Source: a virus. Taken from it: a stretch of DNA of 64,000 nucleotides. How positions within the stretch are numbered: the first letter of the stretch is position 1; each line of letters starts with the position of its first letter. Below the pieces are notes generated by a model. It made no database searches and was not told where the DNA came from. It worked only from the letters and a program-made list of their open reading frames with translations. This document shows, one piece after another, positions 30,730 through 44,162 of the stretch. Where the stretch lies: IMG/VR virus record IMGVR_UViG_3300020159_002019, positions 45,291-109,290 of that record; one strand, written 5' to 3'. The position numbers and the translations under genes are program-made.

Positions 30730-30758
30730 TAAAAATAAAAAAAGTAAATAATAGACAA

Positions 30759-31178: not shown

Positions 31179-31188
31179 AAAATAAATA

Positions 31189-31218
31189 AAAAAATCCCCT
31201 AACAAAGGGGATTTTTTT
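31189..31218 (+). terminator. Intrinsic terminator
   Basis: aaaatcccct/aggggatttt hairpin plus T-tract. Confidence 0.75.
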
Positions 31219-31243
31219 ATGCCTTTTTATTATACTTGTAATA

Positions 31244-32191
31244 ATGGATTATTCACTTATTACAGATTTAGTTGTTTCAATATTTGGAAACATTAAAAAA
31301 ACTTATCACGGAAACTCACAAGTAACCGTTGATTGTCCTTTGTGTTCCGCCGATAAAGGTGTTGAATATGATGGGAAAGGAAACCTTGAAATAAACCTTG
31401 AACAAGGATTATCTCATTGTTGGTCTTGCGAAAGAACACCCGGAACAATTGATGGACTTATTAAAAAGTTCGGAAATAAACCCCAATATAAGACATTTAA
31501 AGTTATTGCCCCTGAATATGATTACCAAATCAATAAAAGAAAATATACTAAAAAAGATAATAACATTACGGAGTTTCCAAAAGAATTTATCCCGTTCTCA
31601 ACAATAAATAAAAGAAACTATATCCACCTTCAACCATATAATTACATTATATCGAGAGGTTATACAGATGAATTATTAAAGGAATATAATATAGGGTTTT
31701 GTTTAGAAGGGAAATATAAACAAAGAATAGTAATACCATTATACGATAAGAAAGGTAATATTATTTATTTCTCAACCAGGTCATATACAGGTGCTAAACA
31801 AAAATATCTAAATCCTGATACAGATAAAGATGATTTAATATTTAATGAAAATAGAATTGATTGGGAAAAACCATTATATATTACAGAAGGTGTATTTGAT
31901 GGATTACCAATACCTAACCATTTCTTATTATTAGGGAAATCATTATCGGAGTTTAAATGGAAAACAATATATGATAACGCTAAATCGGATATTGTAATTG
32001 CTTTAGATCCTGACGCTAAAGAACAGACGTATAGAATGTATCAGAAGTTAAATGCTGGTAAATTAAGGAATAAAGTATTTGTATTACAATATACCGATGA
32101 TAGGGATTTAGGTAAATTATTTGAAAATAAAAAAGATTTTAACGATACGATATTGAATTACAGATATTTAAGTGAATTTGAAATAATTTAA
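31244..32191 (+). CDS. DNA primase (Zn-finger + TOPRIM)
   Basis: CPLC...HCWSC; RIVIP; KYLNP; ITEGVFD; ALDPD. Confidence 0.85.
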   Translation: MDYSLITDLVVSIFGNIKKTYHGNSQVTVDCPLCSADKGVEYDGKGNLEINLEQGLSHCWSCERTPGTIDGLIKKFGNKPQYKTFKVIAPEYDYQINKRKYTKKDNNITEFPKEFIPFSTINKRNYIHLQPYNYIISRGYTDELLKEYNIGFCLEGKYKQRIVIPLYDKKGNIIYFSTRSYTGAKQKYLNPDTDKDDLIFNENRIDWEKPLYITEGVFDGLPIPNHFLLLGKSLSEFKWKTIYDNAKSDIVIALDPDAKEQTYRMYQKLNAGKLRNKVFVLQYTDDRDLGKLFENKKDFNDTILNYRYLSEFEII

Positions 32192-32291
32192 TTTAAAAAA
32201 CATTTGGAAGTATAAAAAATTATATTACCTTTGTGGTATGAAAAATTAATTACATATTTAATGGTAATTATTTAAAAAAAATAAAAAAAAG

Positions 32292-32322
32292 TTTGACAAT
32301 TAAAAAAAAAGTAGTATCTTTG
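32292..32322 (+). promoter_or_regulatory. Bacteroidota-type primary-sigma promoter for tRNA operon 1
   Basis: TTTG-N19-TATCTTTG; a second copy (TTTG-N19-TACCTTTG) at 32203-32233. Confidence 0.75.
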
Positions 32323-32368
32323 TATCACAAATAAGAAAAACATACTATTTATTAGTAAGAAAATATAT

Positions 32369-32441
32369 CGTGGAGTAGTAGCAGTGGTAGCTCGCAAGGC
32401 TCATAACCTTGAGGTCGGTGGTTCGAATCCATCCTCCGCAA
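32369..32441 (+). tRNA. tRNA-fMet (CAT), initiator
   Basis: Cloverleaf, caagg-ctcataa-ccttg, C1:A72 mismatch. Confidence 0.9.
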
Positions 32442-32479
32442 CAATTTAAAAAAAGTAAAACAATTAAAAAAAAAAGATT

Positions 32480-32557
32480 ATGACAACAATTATTAACATA
32501 TTTGAATTTAACGTGATTGAGGATAGAAGCCTCGGTTTGGGATATCTTTGTGTCTAA
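32480..32557 (+). CDS. Leader peptide 1 (MTTIINIFEFNVIEDRSLGLGYLCV), putative attenuator peptide
   Basis: Ile/Phe/Glu/Asp-rich; contains GGTTTGGG complementary to the terminator 5' arm. Confidence 0.7.
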   Translation: MTTIINIFEFNVIEDRSLGLGYLCV

Positions 32558-32584
32558 TAATGTGTAGTTAGAATGAATTAAAAG

Positions 32585-32615
32585 AAACCCAAACCTAATA
32601 AGTTTGGGTTTTTTT
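32585..32615 (+). terminator. Attenuator terminator 1
   Basis: aaacccaaac-ctaataa-gtttgggttt plus T-tract, directly before tRNA-Asp. Confidence 0.8.
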
Positions 32616-32640
32616 GTTTTATATTGTTATTTGAAAATAC

Positions 32641-32716
32641 GGTTCATAGGTCAAATGGTTAAGATATCTCCCTGTCACGGAGTATGGAGCGGGTTCGATT
32701 CCCGTATGAACCGCCA
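32641..32716 (+). tRNA. tRNA-Asp (GTC)
   Basis: ctcc-ctgtcac-ggag; GGTTCGATT; encoded CCA. Confidence 0.9.
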
Positions 32717-32722
32717 AAATAG

Positions 32723-32799
32723 GGTATCAGGGGCTGCTGGGTGTGGCTACTTGACTGTCACTCAAGAAAAACAGGTGGGTTCGAATCCCATTGGTACCG
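32723..32799 (+). tRNA. tRNA-Asp (GTC), second divergent copy
   Basis: cttga-ctgtcac-tcaag; GGTTCGAATCC. Confidence 0.8.
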
Positions 32800-32810
32800 C
32801 AAAAATAAAT

Positions 32811-32884
32811 GTTCCGTTGGACAAATTGGTTAAGTCGTTTCCCTTTCAAGGAAAAGATTGCGGGTTCAAATCCCGTACGGAATA
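32811..32884 (+). tRNA. tRNA-Glu (TTC)
   Basis: tttcc-ctttcaa-ggaaa. Confidence 0.9.
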
Positions 32885-32891
32885 CAAAAAT

Positions 32892-32964
32892 GGGTTTATA
32901 GTGAAATTGGTGATCACGCATCCCTGATAAGGATGTATTATAGGTTCAAATCCTATTAGACCTA
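32892..32964 (+). tRNA. tRNA-Ile (GAT)
   Basis: catcc-ctgataa-ggatg. Confidence 0.85.
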
Positions 32965-32970
32965 CAATAT

Positions 32971-33043
32971 GGTGCAGTGGCAGATAAGGTTATTGCGGCG
33001 GACTGAAAATCCGTAGGAGTCGGATCGTTACCGACCTGCACCA
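32971..33043 (+). tRNA. tRNA-Phe (GAA)
   Basis: gcgga-ctgaaaa-tccgt; variant T-loop. Confidence 0.85.
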
Positions 33044-33052
33044 CAATAATAT

Positions 33053-33126
33053 ACTACCATAGCTCAATTGGTGAGAGCAGGATGCTTATACCATCAAGGT
33101 TGTCGGTTCAAATCCGGTTGGTAGTA
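33053..33126 (+). tRNA. tRNA-Ile (TAT)
   Basis: gatg-cttatac-catc; canonical D and T arms. Confidence 0.8.
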
Positions 33127-33131
33127 CAAAT

Positions 33132-33202
33132 GGGATAAAAGCACATAAGGATGTGCAGACCCTAAACAGGGTAAGGATTGGGTTCGAATCCCAGATATTC
33201 CA
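33132..33202 (+). tRNA. tRNA-like element with shortened anticodon loop (undetermined)
   Basis: D stem gcac/gtgc and T arm GGTTCGAATCC present; accct-aaac-agggt gives only a 4-6 nt loop. Confidence 0.55.
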
Positions 33203-33220
33203 CAAAAAAATTAAAAAAAG

Positions 33221-33251
33221 TTTGGAAATAATAAAAAAAGGAGTATCTTTG
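33221..33251 (+). promoter_or_regulatory. Bacteroidota-type promoter (near-leaderless mRNA)
   Basis: TTTG-N19-TATCTTTG, 4 nt before ATG. Confidence 0.7.
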
Positions 33252-33255
33252 TAGT

Positions 33256-34113
33256 ATGGCAAAAATAGAAACATTAAAAGCAAAATTCCCTAATATAACC
33301 GAACAAACATTTATTCGTTTATTTGAGGGTGACAAGACATCTACTAAAAAGTATGCTGAATTTTTACTTTCCGCTTGGAATAGAAAAGGGACAAATTATG
33401 GTGGTTTAAGGGGTGTTGATGACTATATTAAATTGGTTGAGAATTTTGAGAAATTAACCCCTTATATTGATAATAAGGATATATACTCTTATGGAGATAT
33501 TCAATCAATAGTTGGTGTTGTTAAAATAGCTGAAGCCGAAAAAAATGAAAAATCTTTTGATAAAGATGAACACATTTCAGTTATTGAAGAAACTGAAGAT
33601 TATATCTTTTTGATACCTAAAACACACGTTGGTTCATTAAAATATGGTTCTAATACTAAATGGTGCACAGCGGCATCAACAAGTCCTGGAACTTTTAAAT
33701 CATATATTGATAGAGGTTTTTTAGCTTATTTAGTTGATAAGAAAAATAAAAAGACGAATAATCAAAATAAATTGGCTTTTTATTTTACAAATAAAGAAAA
33801 CTTACTTACACAAGTAATCCAAATCTTTAATCAATTAGATTCACTTGTAAATGAAAACCAAGTAATACAGAGTGGTTGGGATATTATGTTATTGAGTAAT
33901 CTTATAACTAAATTGAGGGTTTTCTTATTTGAGTTTAAGGAGAAAGAAAAAGTTAGGGTTGAAGTATCTAAAACAATTCAACAATTGAATCAAATCAATT
34001 ACGATAACTTCTTTAATGCTTTAAATACGTTAAAGATAAATCCTGAGAATGTTGAAGAATTGAAAAACGCTTTAGGGTTAGTTAAAACTTCAATGAAAAA
34101 AATCAAAGTATGA
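33256..34113 (+). CDS. Hypothetical protein, YG-x-x-(T/S)KWC repeat family
   Basis: GSLKYGSNTKWCTA motif shared with three other ORFs. Confidence 0.6.
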   Translation: MAKIETLKAKFPNITEQTFIRLFEGDKTSTKKYAEFLLSAWNRKGTNYGGLRGVDDYIKLVENFEKLTPYIDNKDIYSYGDIQSIVGVVKIAEAEKNEKSFDKDEHISVIEETEDYIFLIPKTHVGSLKYGSNTKWCTAASTSPGTFKSYIDRGFLAYLVDKKNKKTNNQNKLAFYFTNKENLLTQVIQIFNQLDSLVNENQVIQSGWDIMLLSNLITKLRVFLFEFKEKEKVRVEVSKTIQQLNQINYDNFFNALNTLKINPENVEELKNALGLVKTSMKKIKV

Positions 34114-34460
34114 GGAGTGTAAAACAAATCAAAAAGTTAAGATATACTAATGATTGGGTGTCAAATGTTGATGATTCAAATATAACTTATCGTCTTTTTA
34201 CTTATAATGGTTTAACTTGGAATGTTATTTTAACTAACCGACAAGAATTAGGTGGTTGGACAATAAGGTTATGTAATAATGATGGTGATGAATTATACAT
34301 TTTTAATTCAGGTGTGAATAGAATGTCCATATCAATAAATGACGATTTAATTTACGAATTAGATGGTTGGTATTATGAAAATATAACTGAATTGAAGAAT
34401 AGGTTAGAAAACGATTTAATCGTATTATTAAGGAAATATGAGGAGTATATCAAAAATTAG
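34110..34460 (+). CDS. Hypothetical protein
   Basis: 116-aa ORF, ATGA-coupled. Confidence 0.5.
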   Translation: MRSVKQIKKLRYTNDWVSNVDDSNITYRLFTYNGLTWNVILTNRQELGGWTIRLCNNDGDELYIFNSGVNRMSISINDDLIYELDGWYYENITELKNRLENDLIVLLRKYEEYIKN

Positions 34461-34770
34461 GGTAAGTGTAAAACAAGATTTTCAAGAATGGTTGGAAAAA
34501 ACTACCATTAGTAGATGGATGCCAAGACATAGAATAATATGTAATGATGGGTTTTCTATGTCAGTTCAGGGTGGTGAGTTTACATATTCAAACCCAAGAC
34601 AATTTGGTAGTAGTTTTACTGAAATGGAGATTGGGTTTCCTTCTGAGTATGAAGAATTGATTAGTAGTTATTCTGACTCTAATGAATATACTCAAACTGT
34701 TTATCCATATGTCCCAGTAAGTTTAATTATTGAAGTGATTGAAAAACACGGAGGAATAAAAAAAGATTAG
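34438..34770 (+). CDS. Hypothetical phage protein
   Basis: CNDGFSMSVQ...EIGFPS...VYPYVP..IEKHGG. Confidence 0.6.
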   Translation: MRSISKIRVSVKQDFQEWLEKTTISRWMPRHRIICNDGFSMSVQGGEFTYSNPRQFGSSFTEMEIGFPSEYEELISSYSDSNEYTQTVYPYVPVSLIIEVIEKHGGIKKD

Positions 34771-34787
34771 AAAAAAATAAAAAAAGA

Positions 34788-34818
34788 TTTGACAAGTTAA
34801 AAAAAAATGTTATCTTTG
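34788..34818 (+). promoter_or_regulatory. Bacteroidota-type promoter for tRNA operon 2
   Basis: TTTG-N19-TATCTTTG. Confidence 0.75.
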
Positions 34819-34897
34819 TATAACAAATGGGATATGAAAATATTTTTTAGATTTCCTTGACAAAAACAAAAAAACAAACTATTTATAAATTAAAGAT

Positions 34898-35008
34898 ATG
34901 AAAAACACGAATAAAAATATGACTATGGTTGTGAAAGCAACGGCAAAAGGTGGGAATAGAAATACCACACTTGGTTTAGGGCGTGTTATGTCTTTAATGG
35001 ATAGATAA
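34898..35008 (+). CDS. Leader peptide 2 (MKNTNKNMTMVVKATAKGGNRNTTLGLGRVMSLMDR), putative attenuator peptide
   Basis: First 24 residues are all K/N/T/M/V/A/G/R; contains GGTTTAGGG antiterminator. Confidence 0.75.
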   Translation: MKNTNKNMTMVVKATAKGGNRNTTLGLGRVMSLMDR

Positions 35009-35032
35009 TACAATAATATAAAAAGATATATT

Positions 35033-35069
35033 AAAAACCCTGAACCATAAAAAAGTTCAGGGTTTTTTT
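35033..35069 (+). terminator. Attenuator terminator 2
   Basis: aaaaaccctgaac-cataaaaaa-gttcagggttttttt, directly before tRNA-Thr. Confidence 0.8.
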
Positions 35070-35077
35070 ATTTATAA

Positions 35078-35149
35078 TCCAGATTAGTTTAATTGGGAAA
35101 ACACGTCTCTTGTAAAGATGAAAAGTTGGTTCGAATCCGACATTTGGAT
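35078..35149 (+). tRNA. tRNA-Thr (TGT)
   Basis: cgtct-cttgtaa-agatg; GGTTCGAATCC. Confidence 0.85.
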
Positions 35150-35255
35150 CAAAGAAAATAGTAAAAAATTAATTAAAAATATGAAACGAAAACAGTAGGG
35201 TGTATGATCAATTAGGAATAGGTTGCATACACTAAAAATTAAAAAAAATGTATAT

Positions 35256-35343
35256 GCACCTATGGCTTAATTGGTAGAGCAACCGGCTTTTAACCGGTGG
35301 GGTAGACGAAAGTCCGTTGAAGGTTCGAGTCCTTCTGGGTGCA
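35256..35343 (+). tRNA. tRNA-Lys (TTT) with long variable arm
   Basis: accgg-cttttaa-ccggt; extra gac-gaaa-gtc hairpin. Confidence 0.8.
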
Positions 35344-35349
35344 CAATTT

Positions 35350-35422
35350 ACTTTCGTAGCTTAATTGGTAAAGAAACTAACTCTTAATTAGTGTGATGTG
35401 AGTTCGAGTCTCACTGGAAGTA
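35350..35422 (+). tRNA. tRNA-Lys (CTT)
   Basis: actaa-ctcttaa-ttagt. Confidence 0.8.
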
Positions 35423-35449
35423 CTAAATGTTATTTGAAATATTATAAAT

Positions 35450-35522
35450 TGGGATGTAACTCAGAGGCTAGAGTGTTTGCCTGTTAAGCAAAAAGTCGAG
35501 ATATCGTAATTCTCCATCCCAG
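35450..35522 (+). tRNA. tRNA-Asn (GTT)
   Basis: tttgc-ctgttaa-gcaaa; atypical T-loop. Confidence 0.75.
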
Positions 35523-35583
35523 CAAAAATTGAAAGATAAACGTATGAAACAAAGGAATGTAGTGGTTTATTAAGTAAATATAT

Positions 35584-35655
35584 GGCTCTATCGTTTAACG
35601 CATAAGACATTTCTCTTCTAAAGAAAGAATAGGGGTTGGATTCCCTTTAGAGCCA
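35584..35655 (+). tRNA. tRNA-Arg (TCT)
   Basis: tttct-cttctaa-agaaa. Confidence 0.8.
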
Positions 35656-35659
35656 CAGC

Positions 35660-35687
35660 AATCCAAGTTCGATTCTTGGTGGGAGTA
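35660..35687 (+). pseudogene. Orphan tRNA 3' half (T arm + acceptor strand)
   Basis: ccaag-ttcgatt-cttgg-tgggagta with no matching 5' half. Confidence 0.55.
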
Positions 35688-35696
35688 CAAAAAAAT

Positions 35697-35767
35697 ACCT
35701 TCTTAGTTAAATGGGAGAATATCTGTTTTACATACAGAAGATAACTGTTCGATTCAGTTAGGGGGTA
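35697..35767 (+). tRNA. tRNA-Val (TAC)
   Basis: tctgt-tttacat-acaga. Confidence 0.8.
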
Positions 35768-35819
35768 CAAAAAAAGATTTGATTTTTTAAAAAAAATTAT
35801 TATCTTTAAAAAACAATAT

Positions 35820-35892
35820 GGGGTTATGGTATAGTTGGCGAACACAGTAGCTTTGCAAGCTTCAGTCCCGAGTTCAAATCTCGGTAGCTCCA
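35820..35892 (+). tRNA. tRNA-Ala (TGC)
   Basis: agc-tttgcaa-gct; G3:U70 pair. Confidence 0.85.
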
Positions 35893-35895
35893 CAA

Positions 35896-35965
35896 TGTTT
35901 CACTTAGAATAAAAACAAACGCTTAATAGCAACAAACTCTTAATTTGTCAATTATTAGTGAAACA
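35896..35965 (+). repeat. CACTTAGAATAA stem element, copy 1
   Basis: Closing stem tgtttcact/agtgaaaca. Confidence 0.6.
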
Positions 35966-35968
35966 AAT

Positions 35969-36039
35969 GTCGATATAGTTAAATGGGATAACACCCCTCT
36001 CATCAAGGGAAGTTATTGGTTCGAATCCAGTTATCGATA
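35969..36039 (+). tRNA. tRNA-Met (CAT), elongator (Ile2 not excluded)
   Basis: ccct-ctcatca-aggg; GGTTCGAATCC. Confidence 0.75.
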
Positions 36040-36050
36040 CCCTGAAATAA

Positions 36051-36127
36051 TATTTCACTTAGAATAAAAAACTATTTGAATTTATCCTCCAATGGAGGGT
36101 GTATTTAATCCAATTAATAGTGAAATA
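36051..36127 (+). repeat. CACTTAGAATAA stem element, copy 2
   Basis: Closing stem tatttcact/agtgaaata; internal cctcc/ggagg hairpin. Confidence 0.6.
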
Positions 36128-36130
36128 AAT

Positions 36131-36203
36131 GCGGGTGTAGCTCAATTGGTAGAGCGCGACCTTGCCAAGGTCGAGGCTGTGGGATCGTACCCCATCACCC
36201 GCT
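36131..36203 (+). tRNA. tRNA-Gly (GCC)
   Basis: cgacc-ttgccaa-ggtcg. Confidence 0.9.
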
Positions 36204-36206
36204 CAT

Positions 36207-36412
36207 TGAGTAAGAGGTACTCAGTAGTCTTTAATCCAAGACTCATTTAACAATGGATTCGCTTAAATCGGACAGCGAAAATGCCGGTTCTTAGGAATAA
36301 GGAGCGAAGCACACCTCCCCTTCGTAGTGTGACTATTTTTAATGGGGATGCCCTTCAGGTTTTTGGAAAGAAGAAAACCGAAATGACTACTCACCTAAAT
36401 CTCAAGGTGGGG
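36207..36412 (+). ncRNA. Candidate structured ncRNA between the two tRNA-Gly genes
   Basis: GC-richer than genome; several hairpins, a long-range stem and two possible pseudoknots. Confidence 0.45.
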
Positions 36413-36419
36413 TAAACAA

Positions 36420-36491
36420 GCGAGTATCGTATAATGGCTATTATACCACGCTTCCAACGTGGGGATGTGATTTCGATTATCACTACTCGCT
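36420..36491 (+). tRNA. tRNA-Gly (TCC)
   Basis: ccacg-cttccaa-cgtgg. Confidence 0.85.
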
Positions 36492-36520
36492 CCGGACGTT
36501 TTAGAAATCAGTAATATTTT

Positions 36521-36552
36521 TTTGGTATTACTGATTTTTTTTATTACCTTTG
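36521..36552 (+). promoter_or_regulatory. Bacteroidota-type promoter
   Basis: TTTG-N20-TACCTTTG. Confidence 0.65.
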
Positions 36553-36568
36553 TAGAAATAATAAAATT

Positions 36569-37018
36569 ATGACACTTAAAGAACAAATTCAAAAAGACTT
36601 CATCACGGCTATGAAAAATAAAGATGAATGGACTAAATCCGCTCTAAGTGGGTTAAAATCAAAGATTACTGAAGCTGAAAAAGTTAATGGAACAGAATTA
36701 TCAGACGCTGATATTCTTAAACTAATTAATAAAGGTATTAAACAAAGGGAAGAATCTGCTACTATATATAGTGAAGCAGGTCGTCCGGAATTAGCTGCGA
36801 AAGAATTACTTGAACTTAATGTTTTAATGGATTATATGCCAGCTCAAATGACTGATGAGGAAATTGAAACGGCTGTAAGGGAAATTATTGTTGGATTACC
36901 TACAATGACAAACGCAAATGCCTTGTCAGGAAAAACTATGGGTGAATTCAATAAAAAGTATCAAGGAATGGCTGATTCTAAAAGAGTTTCAGAAATTATA
37001 AAAAAAGTTGTATCATAA
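36569..37018 (+). CDS. GatB/YqeY domain protein
   Basis: MTLKEQIQKDFITAMKNKD...KQREESATIYSEAGRPELA.KE..EL.VL..YMPAQM. Confidence 0.9.
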   Translation: MTLKEQIQKDFITAMKNKDEWTKSALSGLKSKITEAEKVNGTELSDADILKLINKGIKQREESATIYSEAGRPELAAKELLELNVLMDYMPAQMTDEEIETAVREIIVGLPTMTNANALSGKTMGEFNKKYQGMADSKRVSEIIKKVVS

Positions 37019-37062
37019 TTTGACTTTCAATAAACAATAAACTATAATTAAAAAACAAAAAT

Positions 37063-37173
37063 GGGGGGTAATTTTTTAGTGGATTGAAAATACCACTTAG
37101 AATAACTCTAAACTATATTGGTAAAAGTTTGACTAATAATCAAATATAGAAGGTTCGAACCCTTCACCCCCCG
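37063..37173 (+). ncRNA. tRNA-like RNA (AAT loop) with ~40-nt insertion carrying CACTTAGAATAA copy 3
   Basis: ggggggt/acccccc acceptor, tttga-ctaataa-tcaaa arm, gaagg-ttcgaac-ccttc T arm. Confidence 0.6.
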
Positions 37174-37203
37174 CAATTATTAACAATATAAAACATAAAG
37201 TAT

Positions 37204-39042
37204 ATGACAGAATTAGTAAAAGAAAAAATGAAGTTATCTAACACATTAGATACATTACAATTTTTAAGAACCGCTAAAGGTGCTTCAGATGAAAAAATTC
37301 ATTTGGCTTTAGATAAAGCCTATGCTGAAACAACATCTAATGGAGTTGAGGAAATGTTATATAGAATTATGTTTCATATTGGAGATATTTCAAGAAAGCA
37401 TAATATCTTTAAAGAATTTGAAATCAACTCAGAAGTGGGTGGGGCTCAAGAAAGAAAGATATTTAGATCTTGTGTAAGATGGATGCAAAAGAACACCCCA
37501 GAGTTCTTGCATAACAACTTAAAGTTAGTAGTTGAATATACTTCATACGAAACTTTAATGTATTACCAAGTAAGCACAAACAGATATTTGGGTAATGTTA
37601 TGGGTGTTGAAAAACTATTCATTGACAACCAATATTTGTTCCCTTTCTTAAAGTCTGAGATTGAATCAGGTGTAAACTTGAACTTAATCGCAAGACACTT
37701 ACCTAAATATGCTACAGGTAAGCAAAGAACAACTAAAAAGACTTTAGTTGGTAAAAGGGGAAGAACTGAATTCAGTTGGACATTACCGAAAGGTAAGACT
37801 TGGGTTAAAATCAATGGAAACCTTGTAAATGGTGATAAAATCACGGTTAAGCATGGTGATGTTGCTGAATACCCAAGAGAAAAGAAATCTGAGTCTTTAA
37901 CAAGACAAAGTTTCTTAAACAAGTGGATTAAGGATTTCTGTGATTATATGAAATGGACAATCGCTGATTACAAAGCATTTAAGGGTAAGCAGAATACTGC
38001 TGAACAAAAAATGTCAAGTGGTTCAGTAATGTCTATGACAGAAGATCAATTTAATGGTTTCTTGGATTCTTTGACTGCGGGACAAAGAAAAAGGGTTGTA
38101 AAATCATTGGGTAATCCTAAATGGGGACAGCTAACTAAATGGTATAAGGCTTGGGAAGATGACCAATCTAACTTAGCTGAAAAAATTAGAAAAGCTACCA
38201 CACCTGCTGAAAAAGCCGCTTTGATGAAAGATTTCAAAGTTAAAACAACAGGGGATCAAACAATTGATTTGTTGGCTGAAATGCTTGGTAAGGGTTTAAA
38301 TGCTCAACAAGTAAATAACAACTATCAATCAATGATTGAGAGAATGAACATTAAACATTCAGTATTTCCAATTATTGACGGTTCGGGTTCTATGGATAGT
38401 ACTTTTGACCATAACGGTGTAGGAATATCTAACAGACAAGTAGCATACGCAATGGCAATTGCATTTACTACAATGAATCCAAACCCAAGATTTAGAAATA
38501 CTTATGGTTGGTTCTCAAACGACTTTAAGGTTTTTGGTAGGTCTGAGTATGGTGATACCTATATATCTATGTTTAAGAATGTGGATAAGTATGTAAGTCA
38601 TACAAAGACTTTTACTGAGAATTACAGATTACTTATGGAGACAGATCCAAAAGAAATTACATCTACAAATATGTTTGCTTCGGTAGAATATTTTGTAAAT
38701 CTTGTGAAAACAGGAAGATGTACTATGGAAGAATTACCTGAAACATTACTTTATCTTACAGATAATGAGTATAATTCAGGTAAATCACCAAAAGAAGCGG
38801 TTACTTTAGCCAATTCAATTGGATGGAGACCAAAGTTAATTTTTTGGGGTATTACCACAATGACTCATTCTATTAAGGAAGAGTTAAAATATACTCCGAA
38901 TGGTTTATTCATCGGTGGTTTCAACGAAAGTTGTTTATCACAAATCTTGGATGGAATCTCAAAAGATTCAATAAATCCAGAAGATGAATTGTGGGCTATT
39001 TATAACGATATTCGTTATAGTGTAATTAAAGTAGGTGAATAA
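37204..39042 (+). CDS. DUF2828/TROVE-like protein with C-terminal vWA domain
   Basis: GGAQERKIFR N-terminal motif; IIDGSGSM MIDAS; STNM; LLYLTDNEYN; PKLIFW. Confidence 0.65.
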   Translation: MTELVKEKMKLSNTLDTLQFLRTAKGASDEKIHLALDKAYAETTSNGVEEMLYRIMFHIGDISRKHNIFKEFEINSEVGGAQERKIFRSCVRWMQKNTPEFLHNNLKLVVEYTSYETLMYYQVSTNRYLGNVMGVEKLFIDNQYLFPFLKSEIESGVNLNLIARHLPKYATGKQRTTKKTLVGKRGRTEFSWTLPKGKTWVKINGNLVNGDKITVKHGDVAEYPREKKSESLTRQSFLNKWIKDFCDYMKWTIADYKAFKGKQNTAEQKMSSGSVMSMTEDQFNGFLDSLTAGQRKRVVKSLGNPKWGQLTKWYKAWEDDQSNLAEKIRKATTPAEKAALMKDFKVKTTGDQTIDLLAEMLGKGLNAQQVNNNYQSMIERMNIKHSVFPIIDGSGSMDSTFDHNGVGISNRQVAYAMAIAFTTMNPNPRFRNTYGWFSNDFKVFGRSEYGDTYISMFKNVDKYVSHTKTFTENYRLLMETDPKEITSTNMFASVEYFVNLVKTGRCTMEELPETLLYLTDNEYNSGKSPKEAVTLANSIGWRPKLIFWGITTMTHSIKEELKYTPNGLFIGGFNESCLSQILDGISKDSINPEDELWAIYNDIRYSVIKVGE

Positions 39043-39053
39043 CCTACTTTTTT
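39028..39053. terminator. Bidirectional terminator
   Basis: aaagtaggt/acctacttt between convergent genes. Confidence 0.65.
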
Positions 39054-39271
39054 TATGCCTTTATTTTAACCACAACCTCACCTTCATTATTAGTGGTTAG
39101 ATAATATTCTTTTTTGTTTGTAAATCCATATTTTTTAGATATGTTTGATTCTATCCTTTTTTTGGTTGATGGTGTGTTAGCAAATGTAATATGTGGTTGA
39201 ACATATTCATCTTTGAATTGTTCCATTTTATTTACCGTTTCTTTAATAATTCTCTTAATTAAATTTTTCAT
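39053..39271 (-). CDS. Small hypothetical protein
   Basis: MKNLIKRIIKE N-terminus; TATTTAT motif upstream on minus strand. Confidence 0.55.
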   Translation of the reverse strand: MKNLIKRIIKETVNKMEQFKDEYVQPHITFANTPSTKKRIESNISKKYGFTNKKEYYLTTNNEGEVVVKIKA

Positions 39272-39338
39272 ATAAATAAATATTTGGTTTTATGAAAACT
39301 ATTATTTATATTTGTATTGTAATTAAAAAATAAAATAT

Positions 39339-40004
39339 ATGTATAATAACAAAACAGATTTTAACAAATTCGCAACATCGCATATGGGTATATCGTCTTT
39401 ATACCTCGATGATCTTCAATCGTCAATGACACCTCACATCTTAGAAGAAAGACCGACAAGAGCAAATCTTATGTCAGTATTTGATAGATTGATGCAAGAT
39501 AGGATTATTTGGGTTGCCGGTGCGGTTGATGAGGGTATGTCACAAGTTATTCAAGCGCAATTGATTTACTTGTCAAACTCAGACCCTAAGAAAGAAATTA
39601 CGATGCACATTGACACTCCTGGTGGTTCAGTAAAGGCTGGATTATCAATCGTGGATGTAATGGATTATGTTAAACCTGACATTAGAACAATCAATACAGG
39701 TATGGCGGCATCAATGGGTTCAGTATTGTTAGGCGCTGGAACCAAAGGAAAAAGAATGTCTTTAAGATTTTCACAAACAATGCTACACCAATCTTCAGGT
39801 GGTGTGAGAGGAAATATTCAGGATGCTAGGATAACAATGATTGAATGGGAAAAAATAAATGATTTGTTATTTAATTTGTTAGGTGGGTATTGTGGTAAGG
39901 ATGCTATCCAAGTAAAAGAAGATGCTTCTCGTGATTTATGGTTAAGTTCTGAAGAAGCGTTGGCTTATGGGATAATTGACGAAATAATCAAACCAAAAAA
40001 ATAA
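39339..40004 (+). CDS. clpP: ATP-dependent Clp protease proteolytic subunit
   Basis: DTPGGSV, GMAASMGSVLL (catalytic Ser), MLHQ, RDLWLSSEEALAYGIID. Confidence 0.95.
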   Translation: MYNNKTDFNKFATSHMGISSLYLDDLQSSMTPHILEERPTRANLMSVFDRLMQDRIIWVAGAVDEGMSQVIQAQLIYLSNSDPKKEITMHIDTPGGSVKAGLSIVDVMDYVKPDIRTINTGMAASMGSVLLGAGTKGKRMSLRFSQTMLHQSSGGVRGNIQDARITMIEWEKINDLLFNLLGGYCGKDAIQVKEDASRDLWLSSEEALAYGIIDEIIKPKK

Positions 40005-40015
40005 TTAAAAAAAAG

Positions 40016-40046
40016 TTTGACAATTAGAAAAAAAATATTATCTTTG
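40016..40046 (+). promoter_or_regulatory. Bacteroidota-type promoter for tRNA operon 3
   Basis: TTTG-N19-TATCTTTG. Confidence 0.75.
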
Positions 40047-40121
40047 TATTATAAATGGGATGTGAAAAATATTTTTCACATTTCCATAACAAAAACAAAA
40101 AAACAAACTATTTAATATAAA

Positions 40122-40256
40122 ATGAAAACATTAATTAACATATCATTATCGTCATTGTATCTATTACAGTCGCTATGCCAAAGTTGTGTTTCGGTATTAC
40201 CGTTACATCAGTATTGGTTAGTGCTAGGATTTAGTGCGGTGGGTATGTTAAGTTGA
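40122..40256 (+). CDS. Leader peptide 3 (MKTLINISLSSLYLLQSLCQSCVSVLPLHQYWLVLGFSAVGMLS), putative attenuator peptide
   Basis: 24 of residues 8-33 are S/L/Y/Q/C/P/H/W; contains GGATTTAG antiterminator. Confidence 0.75.
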   Translation: MKTLINISLSSLYLLQSLCQSCVSVLPLHQYWLVLGFSAVGMLS

Positions 40257-40278
40257 TAAGACAATAATATACCTTATT

Positions 40279-40320
40279 AAACCCCCTAAATCCGTATAAA
40301 TGAGATTTAGGGGGTTTTTT
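40279..40320 (+). terminator. Attenuator terminator 3
   Basis: aaaccccctaaatc...gatttagggggtttttt, before tRNA-Pro. Confidence 0.8.
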
Positions 40321-40354
40321 ATTTTAGTTATTTGACATATTGTATTAGAAATAT

Positions 40355-40427
40355 CAGGGTGTATATCAATTGGGAGATTACTCCATTTGGATTGGAGAGG
40401 TTGTAGGTTCGAGTCCTATCACCCTGA
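40355..40427 (+). tRNA. tRNA-Pro (TGG)
   Basis: ctcca-tttggat-tggag. Confidence 0.85.
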
Positions 40428-40434
40428 CAAATAT

Positions 40435-40505
40435 TCCCCTTTCGTCTAACGGCAGGACAGATGGTTTTGAGCTATCGAATCGAGGTTCGAATCCTTGAGG
40501 GGGAA
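40435..40505 (+). tRNA. tRNA-Gln (TTG)
   Basis: gatgg-ttttgag-ctatc; U1:A72. Confidence 0.85.
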
Positions 40506-40557
40506 CCGGTTTGGGTTTTACACTTTTAAACTTACGAGATAAGGAAAAAGTGAAATT

Positions 40558-40628
40558 GGGATGATGCCGAGAGTGGTCAGACGGTCTGTAAAACCGAACT
40601 GCATAGTGTTTGAGTCACTTCCATCCCA
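40558..40628 (+). tRNA. tRNA-Tyr (GTA), atypical with short variable region
   Basis: cggt-ctgtaaa-accg; degenerate D and T arms. Confidence 0.65.
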
Positions 40629-40638
40629 CAAAATAAAC

Positions 40639-40712
40639 GTAAGTGTAGTGAACAATGGCTAACACGTTCGGTTCCAACCCGAAAGATGTGGGTTCGACCC
40701 CTACCACTTGCG
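40639..40712 (+). tRNA. tRNA-Trp (CCA)
   Basis: ttcgg-ttccaac-ccgaa; G73. Confidence 0.85.
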
Positions 40713-40719
40713 CAAATAA

Positions 40720-40814
40720 GGAGAGGTGCTAGAGATGGATTATTGGGCTAGTCTTGAAAACTAGAGATCGTCAGTGATGGGGATCCGTGGGTTCGAATCC
40801 CACTCTCTCCTCCA
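40720..40814 (+). tRNA. tRNA-Ser (TGA)
   Basis: ctagt-cttgaaa-actag; long variable arm; CCA. Confidence 0.9.
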
Positions 40815-40819
40815 AATAT

Positions 40820-40898
40820 GGGTTTGTTGGTGTTAATTGGATGAGCATTTACGATTGTGGCTCGTAAGGTGAGGGGTTCGAATCCCCCATAAACCCCA
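40820..40898 (+). tRNA. tRNA-His (GTG)
   Basis: tacga-ttgtggc-tcgta; G-1:C73. Confidence 0.85.
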
Positions 40899-40978
40899 AA
40901 AGTAAGGAATTAGGTTATTATACGTAGGCTCCGAGTGTAATAACTGAAATTTAGATCCTTATGAACTTCGGTCCGCAG

Positions 40979-41066
40979 GGAGAATTGACAGAGTGGTAAT
41001 GTATCGGTTTGCTAATCCGTAGTCTATGTAAAAGTAGCGGGGGCTCGAATCCCTCATTCTCCGCCA
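40979..41066 (+). tRNA. tRNA-Ser (GCT)
   Basis: ttgctaa loop; long variable arm; G73 then CCA. Confidence 0.8.
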
Positions 41067-41075
41067 AAAATAAAT

Positions 41076-41164
41076 GCTTCTGTGGCGAAATTGGTAGCAC
41101 GCGATGGACTTAAAATCCATTGGGAAATAACAGTACCGTGTCGGTTCGATTCCGACCAGAAGTA
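41076..41164 (+). tRNA. tRNA-Leu (TAA)
   Basis: atgga-cttaaaa-tccat; long variable arm. Confidence 0.9.
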
Positions 41165-41171
41165 CAAACAT

Positions 41172-41257
41172 ACCCCAATGTTGGAATGTAGACAACCTAG
41201 TTTTAGAAACTAGTGTGAAGTAATAGTAGCGTCTGGGTTCAAATCCCAGTTGGGGTA
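41172..41257 (+). tRNA. tRNA-Leu (TAG)
   Basis: ctagt-tttagaa-actag; long variable arm. Confidence 0.85.
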
Positions 41258-41263
41258 CAAAAT

Positions 41264-41351
41264 GGGAATGTGGTGTGAGTGGTTGAAACCGGGGGTCTGC
41301 AAAACCCCAAAAACGAAAGTTTTCACGTCAGTTCGAATCTGATCATTCCCT
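41264..41351 (+). tRNA. tRNA-Cys (GCA) with long variable arm
   Basis: ggggt-ctgcaaa-acccc; aaaac-gaaa-gtttt extra arm; U73. Confidence 0.8.
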
Positions 41352-41360
41352 CAATTACAT

Positions 41361-41433
41361 GACCCCATAGTTCAATGGATTAGAATACTTGAATACGGAT
41401 CAGGAGATGAGAGTTCAAATCTTTCTGGGGTTA
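41361..41433 (+). tRNA. tRNA-Arg (ACG)
   Basis: cttga-atacgga-tcagg. Confidence 0.8.
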
Positions 41434-41440
41434 CAAAAAG

Positions 41441-41466
41441 AAAACCATTTTTATATGGTTTTTTTT
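41441..41466 (+). terminator. Terminator ending tRNA operon 3
   Basis: aaaaccat/atggtttt plus T-tract. Confidence 0.6.
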
Positions 41467-41489
41467 ATGCCATTACATATTTATTACAT

Positions 41490-44162
41490 ATGATTATTAT
41501 TGAAGGAAAATTAGAAGATTTATCTAAGAAATATATACCGAAGTTTAATAGGGATTCATTTACTGAAGGTTTAACCCCTGAATCTGTTATTGAGCATTTA
41601 TATGTTTCAGATCCATCACCAACAAAGAAATACTTTGAGTGGATGATTAAAGAATGTTTGGGATTGATAGAACGTAATTATGTTATTAACAATGAAAAAA
41701 TAGCTAAACTTGTAACGGATATCCAAGAATTTGATAGAAATATTGATAAACTTAGTCAGGATTTTTTAGATTATAATAAAGAAGAAATTGGTGAAATTGC
41801 GTATAAGTTTTTAAATGGTAAGGCTTTAAAAGATATTGGTACATATAATTACGATATTTTAAGAAAAATAATACCTTCATTGGTAGAATATAAGACAGAA
41901 AGTCAAAGAAGAAGATTGGCTAAAGAAGGTGCTAAAATTATATTTCAAGATGAAAAATATGATGTTTATGAAATAGATACTTATGACGCTTCTTGTTTTT
42001 ATGGTCAAGGTTCTAAATGGTGTACAACTTATAAACAAAGTGATTCACATTTTAAATCATATGGTACTGGTAGGAATAAATTATTATATGTTATTAGTAA
42101 AACTAAGACAAAAGAAACTGATCCTCAATTTTATAAGATTGCTATAAATATAAGGTATGTTGATGAACAAATAACATTTTGGGATGCTCCTGATAATAGT
42201 TTTAATGGTTGGAAATATTTTAGGGAACAAGATCCAAATATTTTAACTTTTTTGATTTCTTATATTAAAGAAAAGAATCCTGAAGGATATCTTAAAATGA
42301 TACCTGAAAACTATTTAATAACGATTAAACAAGAAGAAGAAGGTTTAAGTGATTTAAATATTATTTCGGTTTTAGATGTTGATAAATCTAGTGATTGGTT
42401 AAGTCATAAATATGGGTTAAATGGTGTGGATACTATTATTAAAAAATTGGATATATTACAAGGTAATGTCAGTAATTTTTTAGGTGATTATTTTACCAGT
42501 GATGAAAAAGAGTATTTAATCATAAAAAGAAGTGAGAAATTAGAACCAAGAGGTTTGTCGTGGAAAGATTTAGTTAAAAGTTATCACCAATTAGCAATTA
42601 CTCTAGATAGCTATCAACCAAGTTGGTTTATTGATAATTTTTTAGGTGGGGATAAAAACAAAGCGTTAGAAATTGGGACAAAAGAACCGATAGTACTATA
42701 TTGGTTGGCTAGAGGTAGTGTTAATATAAAGGATTTGGGTGATTTATATGGAGCTGAAAAACTTGTTAAATATATTACTAAAAGTAAAGTTAAAGTTATT
42801 TTTGGGTTAAGTGATATATTGGGTGGTTTATTTACAAATGAAACTCCAAAGAAAAGAAAGGAGTTATATGAAATTGCTTATAAGTATGATGGCAAAAAAA
42901 GGAATATTGAATTAGTCGATTATTTGTCTAGACGTATGGGTAAAGAGGGATTCATTGCGTCATTTAATAAAGGTGATGGATATGGAATTGAACCTGATTC
43001 ATATGGAAGAGCATTTTTATATGTTAAAAATAATAACCCTGATTTAATAAGTAATGTATTTAACATTGAGGATATTAGTAAAATCTTCAAGTCAAACGAA
43101 AAAGCGTTTACTTATTTATTAAAAAATTATGATGAATTTACACGTAATTTAGATATTAGTGATTTAACTGAAATGTTTAGTGGTGATGTTCCTGATAGTA
43201 TATATGGTAAATATATGAGTGATTGGGAAAAGAGGAATGTTGCGTCAATATATAGAATGAAAAATGGTTCTGAAAAACTATTTGATTTTGTTCTTAAAAA
43301 GTTTTCTTTTAAAAAGTTAGCCGATATCATCGGATATGATGGAGTATTTCAATTATTTTCTATTGTTAAGTTTAAAAAAGGTATAAACTATATGATTGAA
43401 AATAAGGTTGGCGATATCGCTATTGATGATATAAAAATAAAAGATGGTAAGGTGGTATTGGTTGTTAATGATAGAACGGATTATGCGTTTTTATTTGATG
43501 ATGAAGATTTGGCTAAAACTATATTGGGTGAAGATATGGATTGGGAACCGTATAACGATACTATTTATAATTGGTATGATCAAGTATGGGATTGTATGGT
43601 ACCAAAATCAATTGAACTGGTTAAGTCTTGGATTAAAAGTAATATAACAGATTATGAGAATGATGAAGGTGAAAAAATTGATTTAGGTGATACATATTTA
43701 AATGAAATAGATGATGATGATTTGGGTAAAATAATAGATGAGTACGATGAATTTAGGGATTTAAAAAATGAGATGAGTTGGGCTTATGATAATGGTTATA
43801 ATTCTGTTGCTCAAAGTGATATTATTAGTAAAACACAAGATCAATTAGAAGAATATTTAGGTAGTTATATAGGGTATGAACCAGTTAAAAAGAATGGTCG
43901 TAGATATAATAAAGAAACAGGTAATTCTGAATCATACGAATATACAGCATATGAATACTTATATAATGTGGGTGATGGTTTATATGATATATTATATGAT
44001 TATGCAACTACTAATTGGGGTCATTCGGTTGATTACAACACATATTTTAGCACTTTATTAAAGGATTCTGACCCTAAAAAGTTATATATTGATACTGAGG
44101 CTTATCCAGACGATAAAGAAATTTGTGAGTATTTTAATGATGATTTACCGGAAAGAATATGA
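41490..44162 (+). CDS. Large hypothetical protein, YG-KWC family with acidic C-terminal domain
   Basis: DPSPTKKYFEW; ASCFYGQGSKWCTT. Confidence 0.6.
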   Translation: MIIIEGKLEDLSKKYIPKFNRDSFTEGLTPESVIEHLYVSDPSPTKKYFEWMIKECLGLIERNYVINNEKIAKLVTDIQEFDRNIDKLSQDFLDYNKEEIGEIAYKFLNGKALKDIGTYNYDILRKIIPSLVEYKTESQRRRLAKEGAKIIFQDEKYDVYEIDTYDASCFYGQGSKWCTTYKQSDSHFKSYGTGRNKLLYVISKTKTKETDPQFYKIAINIRYVDEQITFWDAPDNSFNGWKYFREQDPNILTFLISYIKEKNPEGYLKMIPENYLITIKQEEEGLSDLNIISVLDVDKSSDWLSHKYGLNGVDTIIKKLDILQGNVSNFLGDYFTSDEKEYLIIKRSEKLEPRGLSWKDLVKSYHQLAITLDSYQPSWFIDNFLGGDKNKALEIGTKEPIVLYWLARGSVNIKDLGDLYGAEKLVKYITKSKVKVIFGLSDILGGLFTNETPKKRKELYEIAYKYDGKKRNIELVDYLSRRMGKEGFIASFNKGDGYGIEPDSYGRAFLYVKNNNPDLISNVFNIEDISKIFKSNEKAFTYLLKNYDEFTRNLDISDLTEMFSGDVPDSIYGKYMSDWEKRNVASIYRMKNGSEKLFDFVLKKFSFKKLADIIGYDGVFQLFSIVKFKKGINYMIENKVGDIAIDDIKIKDGKVVLVVNDRTDYAFLFDDEDLAKTILGEDMDWEPYNDTIYNWYDQVWDCMVPKSIELVKSWIKSNITDYENDEGEKIDLGDTYLNEIDDDDLGKIIDEYDEFRDLKNEMSWAYDNGYNSVAQSDIISKTQDQLEEYLGSYIGYEPVKKNGRRYNKETGNSESYEYTAYEYLYNVGDGLYDILYDYATTNWGHSVDYNTYFSTLLKDSDPKKLYIDTEAYPDDKEICEYFNDDLPERI

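Follow-up and report, generated by a model that had tools for sequence, protein, structure and literature searches.

Why would a giant phage divide tRNA genes for the whole genetic code among separate arrays that hardly overlap? The usual explanation for tRNA genes in phages is codon usage or, lately, escape from tRNA-cutting defences, and little appears to have been reported on their regulation. The window analysed here (the whole stretch of 64,000 nucleotides of viral DNA) contains 28 tRNA genes that represent all 20 amino acids, arranged as a single Met gene of the initiator type and arrays of 6, 10 and 11 genes, although the source record is only about 34% complete and more tRNA genes may lie beyond it.

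tRNA genes and their partition

ARAGORN at default settings identifies 27 of these genes, all of them on the + strand, and Rfam concurs. The weak one is tRNA-Tyr (40558-40629), which Rfam does not report and ARAGORN finds solely when its threshold is relaxed; its homologue in a relative (L002) is called by ARAGORN at default settings. The genes and their supporting programs are:

32369-32442, + strand: single tRNA-Met, initiator type (ARAGORN, Rfam)
32641-33127, + strand: array 1, Asp, Asp, Glu, Ile(GAU), Phe, Ile(UAU) (ARAGORN, Rfam)
33132-33203, + strand: weak tRNA-like element after array 1 (sub-threshold in Rfam at 23.8 bits; ARAGORN at the relaxed setting only)
35078-36493, + strand: array 2, Thr, Lys, Lys, Asn, Arg(UCU), Val, Ala, Met, Gly, Gly (ARAGORN, Rfam)
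40355-41434, + strand: array 3, Pro, Gln, Tyr, Trp, Ser(UGA), His, Ser(GCU), Leu(UAA), Leu(UAG), Cys, Arg(ACG) (default ARAGORN and Rfam, except Tyr)

The array contents given in the original prediction are thus recovered by both programs, with three amendments: the weak Tyr call, the tRNA-like element after array 1 and the tRNA-Met at 32369-32442, which lies outside the interval that the prediction covered. The first base of this tRNA-Met is unpaired with base 72 (C1 opposite A72, as read from the sequence), and a base 1 unable to pair with base 72 is the mark of bacterial initiator tRNAs; Met is therefore present twice in the window, as initiator and as elongator. In close relatives, the extra tRNA genes are isoacceptor copies within the same array (a second Trp, a second Thr and a third Leu). 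Megablast searches of cultured phages with this region returned matches to single tRNA genes only, and a profile search with a neighbouring protein of 612 residues gave no match among solved structures.

The prediction that the three arrays divide the 20 amino acids almost without overlap is borne out. Arg is the sole amino acid split across arrays, and it is split by codon family, array 2 holding the gene that reads AGR and array 3 the one that reads CGN. When the genes are dealt at random, 0.6% of the deals leave no more than one amino acid split. The partition also follows the first letter of the codon. All ten genes of array 2 read purine-first codons, as had been proposed, and in arrays 1 and 2 together 15 of 16 genes do so (base 36 being a pyrimidine), with Phe in array 1 as the exception. 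Array 3 had been described as reading pyrimidine-starting codons plus Ser AGY, and indeed pyrimidine-first codons are read by 10 of its 11 genes (base 36 being a purine), Ser(AGY) being the exception. The sorting by base 36 of arrays 1 and 2 against array 3 is highly significant (Fisher p=1.4e-5; permutation p=2e-5), and stays so with each codon box counted once (p about 5e-5) or when any two-class rule at any anticodon position is allowed (nine possible rules, p=8.5e-4). Sorting by base 35 (the second position) or by the wobble position is not significant in the window. An origin of the grouping in tandem duplication followed by anticodon change was rejected, since tRNAs for different amino acids are equally alike within and between arrays (identity 0.582 and 0.587, respectively).

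Leaders, terminators and the proposed control

Each array has its own set of control elements, in the order promoter, short leader frame, terminator/antiterminator and tRNA genes. The promoter motif occurs in five copies on the same strand, with identical 30-base spacing and all in the tRNA region. The elements discussed here are:

32292-32321, + strand: promoter copy 1 (TTTG, 19 bases, TATCTTT; also readable as TTGACA-16-TATCTT), ahead of the initiator tRNA and leader 1
32480-32557, + strand: leader frame 1, 25 codons, enriched in Ile, Phe, Glu and Asp
32581-32615, + strand: terminator 1, 5' arm able to pair with the end of leader 1
34788-34817, + strand: promoter copy ahead of leader 2
34898-35008, + strand: leader frame 2, 36 codons
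35033-35067, + strand: terminator 2, 5' arm pairing with codons 25-28 of leader 2
35778-35807, + strand: internal promoter-motif copy in array 2, just 5' of tRNA-Ala
40016-40045, + strand: promoter copy ahead of leader 3
40122-40256, + strand: leader frame 3, 44 codons, rich in Ser, Leu, Tyr, Gln, Cys, Pro, His and Trp
40282-40314, + strand: terminator 3, 12-pair stem, 5' arm pairing with the end of leader 3

The codons of the leaders match the tRNAs behind them. Codons 1-24 of leader 2 specify exclusively the eight amino acids of array 2, all eight being present, and 30 of its 35 residues belong to its own array, a value equalled by none of about 16,800 windows of the same length from the phage's own genes. 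In leader 3, 29 of 43 residues are own-array residues and the best stretch of 15 codons scores 15/15, again unmatched by any window of the phage's own genes. Leader 1 shows a moderate match, weaker than those of leaders 2 and 3: 9 of its 24 residues come from the four amino acids of array 1, and its best 15-codon stretch holds 9 of them (P=0.007). In relatives, this leader is identical or near-identical. An exact scan of IMG/VR with the 26-base 5' leader segment common to units 2 and 3 found it nowhere outside the window, and a variant of the leader start in which Asn is AAT instead of AAC occurs at 118 loci, none of them with a tRNA behind a short frame.

The intrinsic terminators (stems of 11-14 pairs followed by T runs) lie 10-40 bases ahead of the first tRNA, and their 5' arms have an alternative partner in the leader. 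In the model, 12 of the 14 bases of the terminator 1 arm are paired in this way unless a ribosome stands on codon 18 or later of leader 1, and 12 of the 14 bases of the terminator 3 arm unless one stands on codon 34 or later of leader 3. The duplex between the terminator 2 arm and leader 2 is predicted at -16.8 kcal/mol (z=-4.2); the stop codon of leader 2 lies about 25 bases past the pairing segment, so that a ribosome parked there would not cover it. The fold predicted without any ribosome is the antiterminator, unlike in the trp design.

We consider it probable (roughly 0.7) that each of the three arrays is a tRNA transcription unit with an attenuator of its own, and that the partition of the amino acids is the wiring of three sensors. 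The anatomy of the units, the match between leaders and arrays, the pairing potential and the comparative pattern described below are observed; from them, translation of the leaders, ribosome stalling and transcriptional read-through are inferred. When the codons of an array are decoded slowly, the ribosome would lag in the first two thirds of the leader, and the exposed leader end could then pair with the terminator's 5' arm; with this arm sequestered, transcription would continue into the array. When decoding is fast, the ribosome would cover the leader end, the terminator would form and the array would stay off. The initiator tRNA sits between promoter copy 1 and leader 1 and so is not behind the attenuator; this placement would fit the scheme, in which stalling during elongation cannot report on an initiator. 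A Met tRNA is found 5' of leader 1 in relatives too, and 5' of a leader in another lineage (G008). The internal promoter-motif copy of array 2 may allow Ala, Met and the two Gly tRNAs to be made also independently of leader 2. Because each array has a separate promoter, leader and terminator, a shortage that hits one tRNA set could switch on one array; in this respect, the proposal that one attack induces one operon agrees with the build of the locus, although the cause of the grouping that it suggested, position 36/37 features or nuclease class, is not general (see below).

Leaders and groupings in other lineages

The same design of promoter, leader and terminator is present in many other large phages, including the cultured Cellulophaga phage phi38:1, and no publication on leader-gated phage tRNA arrays was found in the literature search. 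Across 20 non-redundant leaders, residues of the leader's own array are in excess by a mean of 0.25, whereas for other arrays the mean is 0.00 (permutation P<1e-5), and the own array is ranked first for 15 of the leaders. An extreme case is a run of seven Gln codons ahead of four Gln tRNA genes. In a relative whose anchor protein is 49% identical, the partition differs and its leader tracks it: the array comprises Ser, Thr, Leu, Arg(UCU) and Cys, and 14 of the 15 sensing residues of the leader come from this set. Arg codons in the sensing stretches follow the family of the Arg tRNA in the array, including CGN-only leaders in AT-rich genomes, suggesting that matching is at the level of the tRNA family and not of the amino acid, which would explain why Arg(AGR) and Arg(CGN) can stand in separate arrays. 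The predicted pairing also recurs: in 19 of the 20 leaders, the best partner of the terminator 5' arm ends between -45 and +25 nt from the stop codon, and all but one of these 19 segments lie inside the frame, with a different sequence each time. In silico, the antiterminator pairing of the 20 leaders has a median z of -2.5 against shuffles, and in five of six modelled cases it is lost once a ribosome masks the final third of the frame. Across these sequences, co-membership of tRNAs in an array varies by lineage, and the leaders vary with it.

First-letter sorting is found in two of the six leader-keeping lineages, those of the window and of phi38:1 (phi38:1/G007), and is not seen in L008/L035, G008, G010 or L264. 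Phage phi38:1 (NC_021796) is a 72.5-kb podovirus and not a jumbo phage, yet it carries three leader-gated arrays with a split similar to that of the window. Its array one contains Ala, Lys, Ile, Gly, Met, Asp, Thr, Val and Arg(UCU), the second consists of U-first readers and the third mostly of C-first readers (p=0.001 for purine/pyrimidine, p=0.0002 by base), although Asn and Glu fall on the opposite side of the split. One of its leaders is annotated merely as a hypothetical protein and the others are unannotated. The partition of the window resembles that of phi38:1 (P=0.0017) and not that of five other lineages; of 18 lineage pairs, only 2 have partitions that agree more than chance would give. 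There is no sign of a recent shared origin of the window and phi38:1 arrays: the window tRNAs are no closer to those of phi38:1 (0.65) than to those of other lineages (0.66-0.67), identities being at the same saturated level as elsewhere. The proposed grouping by position 36/37 class is therefore not supported as a rule, sorting by base 36 being seen in the window and phi38:1 and not in the other four lineages. The outcome is close to the random grouping in leader-keeping relatives that the original prediction had set against its own reading.

The purine/pyrimidine sorting is thus real and non-random in these two lineages, and attenuation does not require it; most likely, it has been kept by descent or by a local advantage. 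An inherited arrangement leaves something unexplained, however, for random dealing would hardly yield so strong a sorting (p about 1e-4 to 1e-5), and phi38:1 shows it again. It is conceivable, though unlikely, that the sorting is adaptive and that arrays are composed by anticodon-loop class, that is, by base 36 and the linked modification of base 37 or by the target set of an anticodon nuclease. One insult would then stall ribosomes on one leader and induce exactly the replacement set, a scheme to which we give rather little credence. The strength of the sorting in both phages speaks for it, as does the agreement of their partitions despite tRNAs that are no closer than those of other lineages. 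The targets of the PARIS nuclease AriB, moreover, are tRNA Lys(UUU), Thr(UGU) and Asn(GUU), which it cleaves at a U36-A-A-U motif (PMC12409363), a U36 class made up of the very tRNAs that head array 2; the suggested comparison with known nuclease specificities thus yields a resemblance only, in a different host. Against an adaptive sorting stand its absence from four of six lineages with the same leader system and the exceptions within the genome itself, Phe and Ser(AGY). The Pro and Leu(CUN) tRNAs of the window have A37 and not G37 in their listed anticodon loops, so that its CNN readers do not appear to form a single uniform base-37 class. Modifications are unreadable from DNA.

Sorting by demand is much less probable: arrays 1 and 2 would serve the codons that this AT-rich phage uses most, and array 3 those it uses less, with sorting by first letter as a by-product. 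Codons of arrays 1 and 2 do occur more often (median of 35 per 1000, compared with 18; p=0.035), and 68% of the phage's codons begin with A or G, but usage separates the arrays far less than the first base does, the heavily used Leu(UUR) and Tyr being in array 3 and the little-used Ala and Lys(AAG) in array 2. Least credible of all is a partition left behind by tandem duplication or by chance, the arrays being ordinary phage tRNA clusters and the short frames meaningless. The isoacceptor copies of close relatives would fit such a view, which is contradicted by the equal likeness of tRNAs within and between arrays and by a leader-array match and an antiterminator placement far beyond chance.

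Known attenuators and the meaning of the partition

The predicted design is leader-peptide attenuation, a known kind of control that would here govern phage tRNA arrays. Multivalent leader-peptide attenuators are known from enterobacteria (thr, ilvGMEDA), together with those of trp, his, leu, pheA and pheST. Like the units of the window, they combine a codon-enriched short frame, an intrinsic terminator and an alternative pairing governed by ribosome position, and one leader may sense several amino acids. In the window, by contrast, control would act on tRNA genes themselves and in a phage, with as many as nine amino acids sensed by a single leader and with matching by tRNA family (Arg AGR versus CGN). 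Moreover, the phage scheme is two-state, its ribosome-free predicted fold being the antiterminator, in contrast to the enterobacterial 1:2/2:3/3:4 scheme. No sequence relation to enterobacterial leaders was found, Rfam leader families giving only a sub-threshold match in 30000-44000. T-box riboswitches also report the state of a particular tRNA by transcription attenuation, but they bind uncharged tRNA directly via a specifier codon and need no translation; an Rfam search of 30000-44000 with E up to 1 gave no T-box match.

The trn operon of Anabaena is similar in being a supplementary tRNA array, silent until translation is impaired. This long array is induced under translational stress (PMC8421152, PMC10272220) and is reported to be under the protein repressor TrcR (PMC10272220). 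It differs in being cellular, on a megaplasmid, and a single operon instead of several with codon-matched leaders. Phage tRNAs are also able to rescue infection from tRNA-cleaving defences, as shown for T5 against PARIS (PMC11464382, PMC12409363) and for the evasion of retrons (PMC11555353). These are phage replacements for destroyed host tRNAs, several of one class being needed together, and no leader-based control is described in those studies. By analogy, the arrays could be class-specific counter-defence circuits, in which a nuclease or the loss of a modification that disables one class of host tRNAs triggers the matching phage set; we regard this as doubtful. If it were true, lineages would group their tRNAs differently because their hosts carry different nucleases.

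On the attenuation reading, the partition of the genetic code among the arrays would be the layout of independent feedback sensors, each one reporting on its own tRNAs. Since leaders always track their arrays and groupings are mostly lineage-specific, any cause of the grouping in tRNA chemistry or nuclease class must be specific to the host and not universal. Phage phi38:1, a cultured phage with a tractable host, opens both the mechanism and the meaning of the sorting to bench work.

The tRNA genes of the window and their partition

By ARAGORN, in agreement with Rfam, the window has 27 tRNA genes; they all lie between 32369 and 41434 on the plus strand and confirm the list of the original prediction except for its Tyr gene, called at a relaxed threshold only. 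The T-loop of this gene is degenerate; in a close relative ARAGORN calls the corresponding gene at default settings. Once Tyr is counted there are 28 genes and all 20 amino acids are represented. The viral record is 109 kb long, with an estimated completeness of 34%; the window makes up its final 64 kb, and no tRNA gene lies in the remainder.

tRNA arrays (ARAGORN and Rfam unless indicated) and the genes between them
32369, plus strand: lone tRNA-Met
32641-33127, plus strand: array 1 (Asp, Asp, Glu, Ile, Phe, Ile)
35078-36493, plus strand: array 2 (Thr, Lys, Lys, Asn, Arg(UCU), Val, Ala, Met, Gly, Gly)
36569-37018: YqeY/GatB-like protein
37204-39042: 612-residue protein with an Asp-Gly-Ser-Gly-Ser motif and a match to a PHROG 'RNA-binding protein'
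39339-40004: ClpP-type protease
40355-41434, plus strand: array 3, default calls (Pro, Gln, Trp, Ser, His, Ser, Leu, Leu, Cys, Arg(ACG))
40558-40629, plus strand: Tyr gene of array 3 (ARAGORN, relaxed threshold)

Arg is the sole amino acid divided between arrays, and its division follows codon family. When the genes are dealt at random into arrays of the observed sizes, at most one amino acid is divided in 0.6% of trials, so that the nearly overlap-free partition originally proposed is borne out. It had also been claimed that array 2 reads purine-first codons only and array 3 pyrimidine-first codons plus Ser(AGY), and this is upheld. The first codon base is read by anticodon base 36. In arrays 1 and 2 this base is a pyrimidine in 15 of the 16 genes, and in array 3 it is a purine in 10 of the 11 (p=1.4e-5 by Fisher test, p=2e-5 by permutation), with Phe and Ser(AGY) as exceptions. 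The split has p=8.5e-4 after allowing for nine two-class rules over three anticodon positions, and p of about 5e-5 with each codon box counted once per array.

Several elements of the arrays are unusual in form. Lys(UUU) (35256-35344) and Cys (41264-41352) have 89 bases each, with extended variable regions; the Tyr gene has only 72, against 83 for its counterpart in L002 (a 94% relative), and a 96-base Trp tRNA is seen in relatives. Directly 3' of array 1, at 33132-33203, there is a tRNA-like element in which a six-pair hairpin replaces the normal D-arm (anticodon AAA by ARAGORN at relaxed threshold only; 23.8 bits in Rfam, sub-threshold), and in close relatives the matching position gives a degenerate tRNA-like call. 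The two Gly genes are separated by a 215-base spacer (36205-36419) that matches nothing in Rfam and contains no convincing frame.

Leader units preceding the arrays

Each of the three arrays is preceded by a similar unit composed of a promoter, a short leader frame and a strong terminator, and its first tRNA begins within about 40 bases of that terminator. Five copies of the promoter motif, all with the same 30-base spacing, lie on the plus strand (32292, 33221, 34788, 35778 and 40016).

Leader frames and terminators
32480-32557, plus strand: leader frame 1, 25 codons, downstream of promoter copy 32292
32581-32615: terminator 1, after leader frame 1
34898-35008, plus strand: leader frame 2, 36 codons, downstream of promoter copy 34788
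35033-35067: terminator 2, after leader frame 2
40122-40256, plus strand: leader frame 3, 44 codons, downstream of promoter copy 40016
40282-40314: terminator 3, after leader frame 3

Codons 1-24 of leader 2 specify exclusively the eight amino acids of array 2, all eight being present, and 30 of its 35 residues belong to that set. Of the 43 residues of leader 3, 29 come from the array 3 set, the rare Cys, His, Trp and Pro among them. These values are reached by none of about 16,800 equal-length windows from the phage's own long genes. The match of leader 1 is weaker (9 of 24 residues; best stretch 9 of 15, P=0.007). When the transcript is folded up to the terminator loop, the terminator 5' arm is predicted in every case to pair near the end of the leader frame, and a ribosome placed on the last third of the frame would disrupt this pairing. 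Besides the moderate match of leader 1 and a promoter copy inside array 2, two points weaken an attenuator reading: by default, with no ribosome present, the antiterminator is the predicted fold, and the stop codon of leader 2 lies well beyond the pairing segment.

The lone tRNA-Met, in which C1 stands opposite A72 (the initiator tRNA signature), sits between the promoter and leader 1, so the sole tRNA invisible to elongation stalling would escape the attenuator. Another promoter copy (35778-35807) is internal to array 2, before tRNA-Ala, and may free Ala, Met, Gly and Gly from leader 2 control. The 9-base motif CACTTAGAA is found before tRNA-Met, tRNA-Gly and the 612-residue gene (35901, 36056 and 37094), and similar CTTAGAA motifs are repeated between the tRNA genes of the relative L011; these motifs and the internal promoter copy may be internal promoters or processing signals.

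Leaders and arrays in relatives and other phages

Relatives were gathered using the 612-residue protein as anchor, which adjoins tRNA arrays in several of them (about 46-52% identity); some of their tRNA genes are atypical and may be missing from the counts. In close relatives (86-97% identity) tRNA order and grouping are unchanged, which by descent was counted as one observation. The partition differs in a relative at 49% identity: the leader of its Ser, Thr, Leu, Arg(UCU) and Cys array draws 14 of 15 sensing residues from that set, and the leader upstream of its Met, Ile, Tyr, Phe, Val and His array is rich in those residues.

Several leaders begin with Met-Lys-Thr-x-Ile-Asn-Ile, and an IMG/VR scan for this start found many further units on unrelated contigs. 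The start is conserved at the nucleotide level (loci L049-L122 and L145-L262): among 74 matches with AAC for Asn, 50 frames have at most 70 codons, 42 of these have at least 12, and tRNA genes follow 17 of the 42; of the 118 IMG/VR matches with AAT, none precedes a tRNA gene. Clear cases were plentiful among whole tRNA regions, such as seven Gln codons ahead of four Gln tRNA genes, a Ser/Arg leader ahead of Ser and Arg(CGN) tRNAs, a Glu/Tyr/Gly/Ile/Ala leader ahead of precisely those tRNAs, and a 44-codon leader with nearly all amino acids ahead of about 20 tRNAs that form a single array. Across 20 non-redundant leaders, the residue excess averages 0.25 for the own array and 0.00 for other arrays (P<1e-5), and the own array ranks top for 15. 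In 19 of the 20, the end of the terminator-arm partner falls in a range from 45 nt before the stop codon to 25 nt after it, all but one of these partners lying inside the leader frame. Arg codons of the sensing stretches track the Arg tRNA family of the array, indicating that leaders match tRNAs and not merely amino acids. Unit anatomy, statistics and this tracking of arrays by leaders are what the analysis shows. One leader-bearing genome is that of Cellulophaga phage phi38:1 (NC_021796, 100% identity), in which one leader is annotated as a hypothetical protein and the rest are unannotated.

Other features of these regions vary. L002 (8318-9333) has a natural deletion of the leader-gated portion of array 2, in which leader 2 and eight tRNA genes, Thr through Met, are gone and the two Gly genes are kept. 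Inserts of 0.6-1 kb break arrays in the relatives L003 (5002-5964), L001 (14091-14869) and L009 (300-900, with an open frame between two tRNA genes). Suppressor-type tRNAs (anticodon CUA or UUA) lie by the anchor gene in the more distant relatives L010 (14006), L025 (9183), L028 (10658) and L039 (2339), a hint that some of these phages may have reassigned a stop codon.

The units share their working design with the multivalent leader-peptide attenuators of thr and ilvGMEDA and with the pheST leader, although here the genes controlled are tRNAs themselves, in a phage. T-box identity was rejected by an Rfam search. Full-text literature searches returned no description of leader-gated tRNA arrays; the nearest published inducible array found is the Anabaena trn operon, which is under the repressor TrcR (PMC8421152, PMC10272220).

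Lineage-specific sorting and its explanations

In our reading, the partition lays out three feedback circuits that would work independently. When the codons of one set are decoded slowly, the antiterminator would be left free and that array would open, and with fast decoding it would close; leader translation, ribosome stalling and read-through into the arrays are what we infer from the units.

It had been proposed that the grouping may reflect anticodon-loop features held in common, such as modifications at position 36/37, or else classes of host tRNA nuclease, one attack inducing one array, and that random grouping in leader-keeping relatives would count against this. Sorting was compared at codon-box level in a small sample of six lineages, whose array sets had been curated from automatic calls. 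By first codon letter it reaches significance for the window and for phi38:1 (purine/pyrimidine p=0.001, base p=0.0002), and not in the leader-keeping lineages L008/L035 (p=1.0), G008 (0.34), G010 (0.17) and L264 (0.75). Grouping by position 36/37 class is not supported as a general rule, and the Pro and Leu(CUN) tRNAs of the window carry A37 and do not fit a uniform base-37 class. Adaptive sorting by class has a low probability. One published nuclease offers a lead from another host, rather than evidence for the window: PARIS AriB, which acts around a U36-A-A-U motif, cleaves tRNA Lys(UUU) and Thr(UGU) and, with lower efficiency, Asn(GUU) (PMC12409363), and array 2 opens with Thr, Lys, Lys, Asn. 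Codon demand separates the arrays, though weakly (p=0.035), and is an unlikely basis, as is chance. A relic of recent duplication was rejected, since tRNAs of the window are no more alike within one array than between arrays.

Pairwise, the window partition agrees beyond chance with that of phi38:1 (P=0.0017) and with none of five other lineages, such agreement being found in only 2 of 18 pairs. The two arrangements may share descent, a question that tRNA similarity decides neither way, the window tRNAs being no nearer in sequence to those of phi38:1 than they are to the tRNAs of the other lineages. The first-base sorting is real, yet lineage-specific; new here are the test of this rule in several lineages and the connection to phi38:1, a phage in culture.
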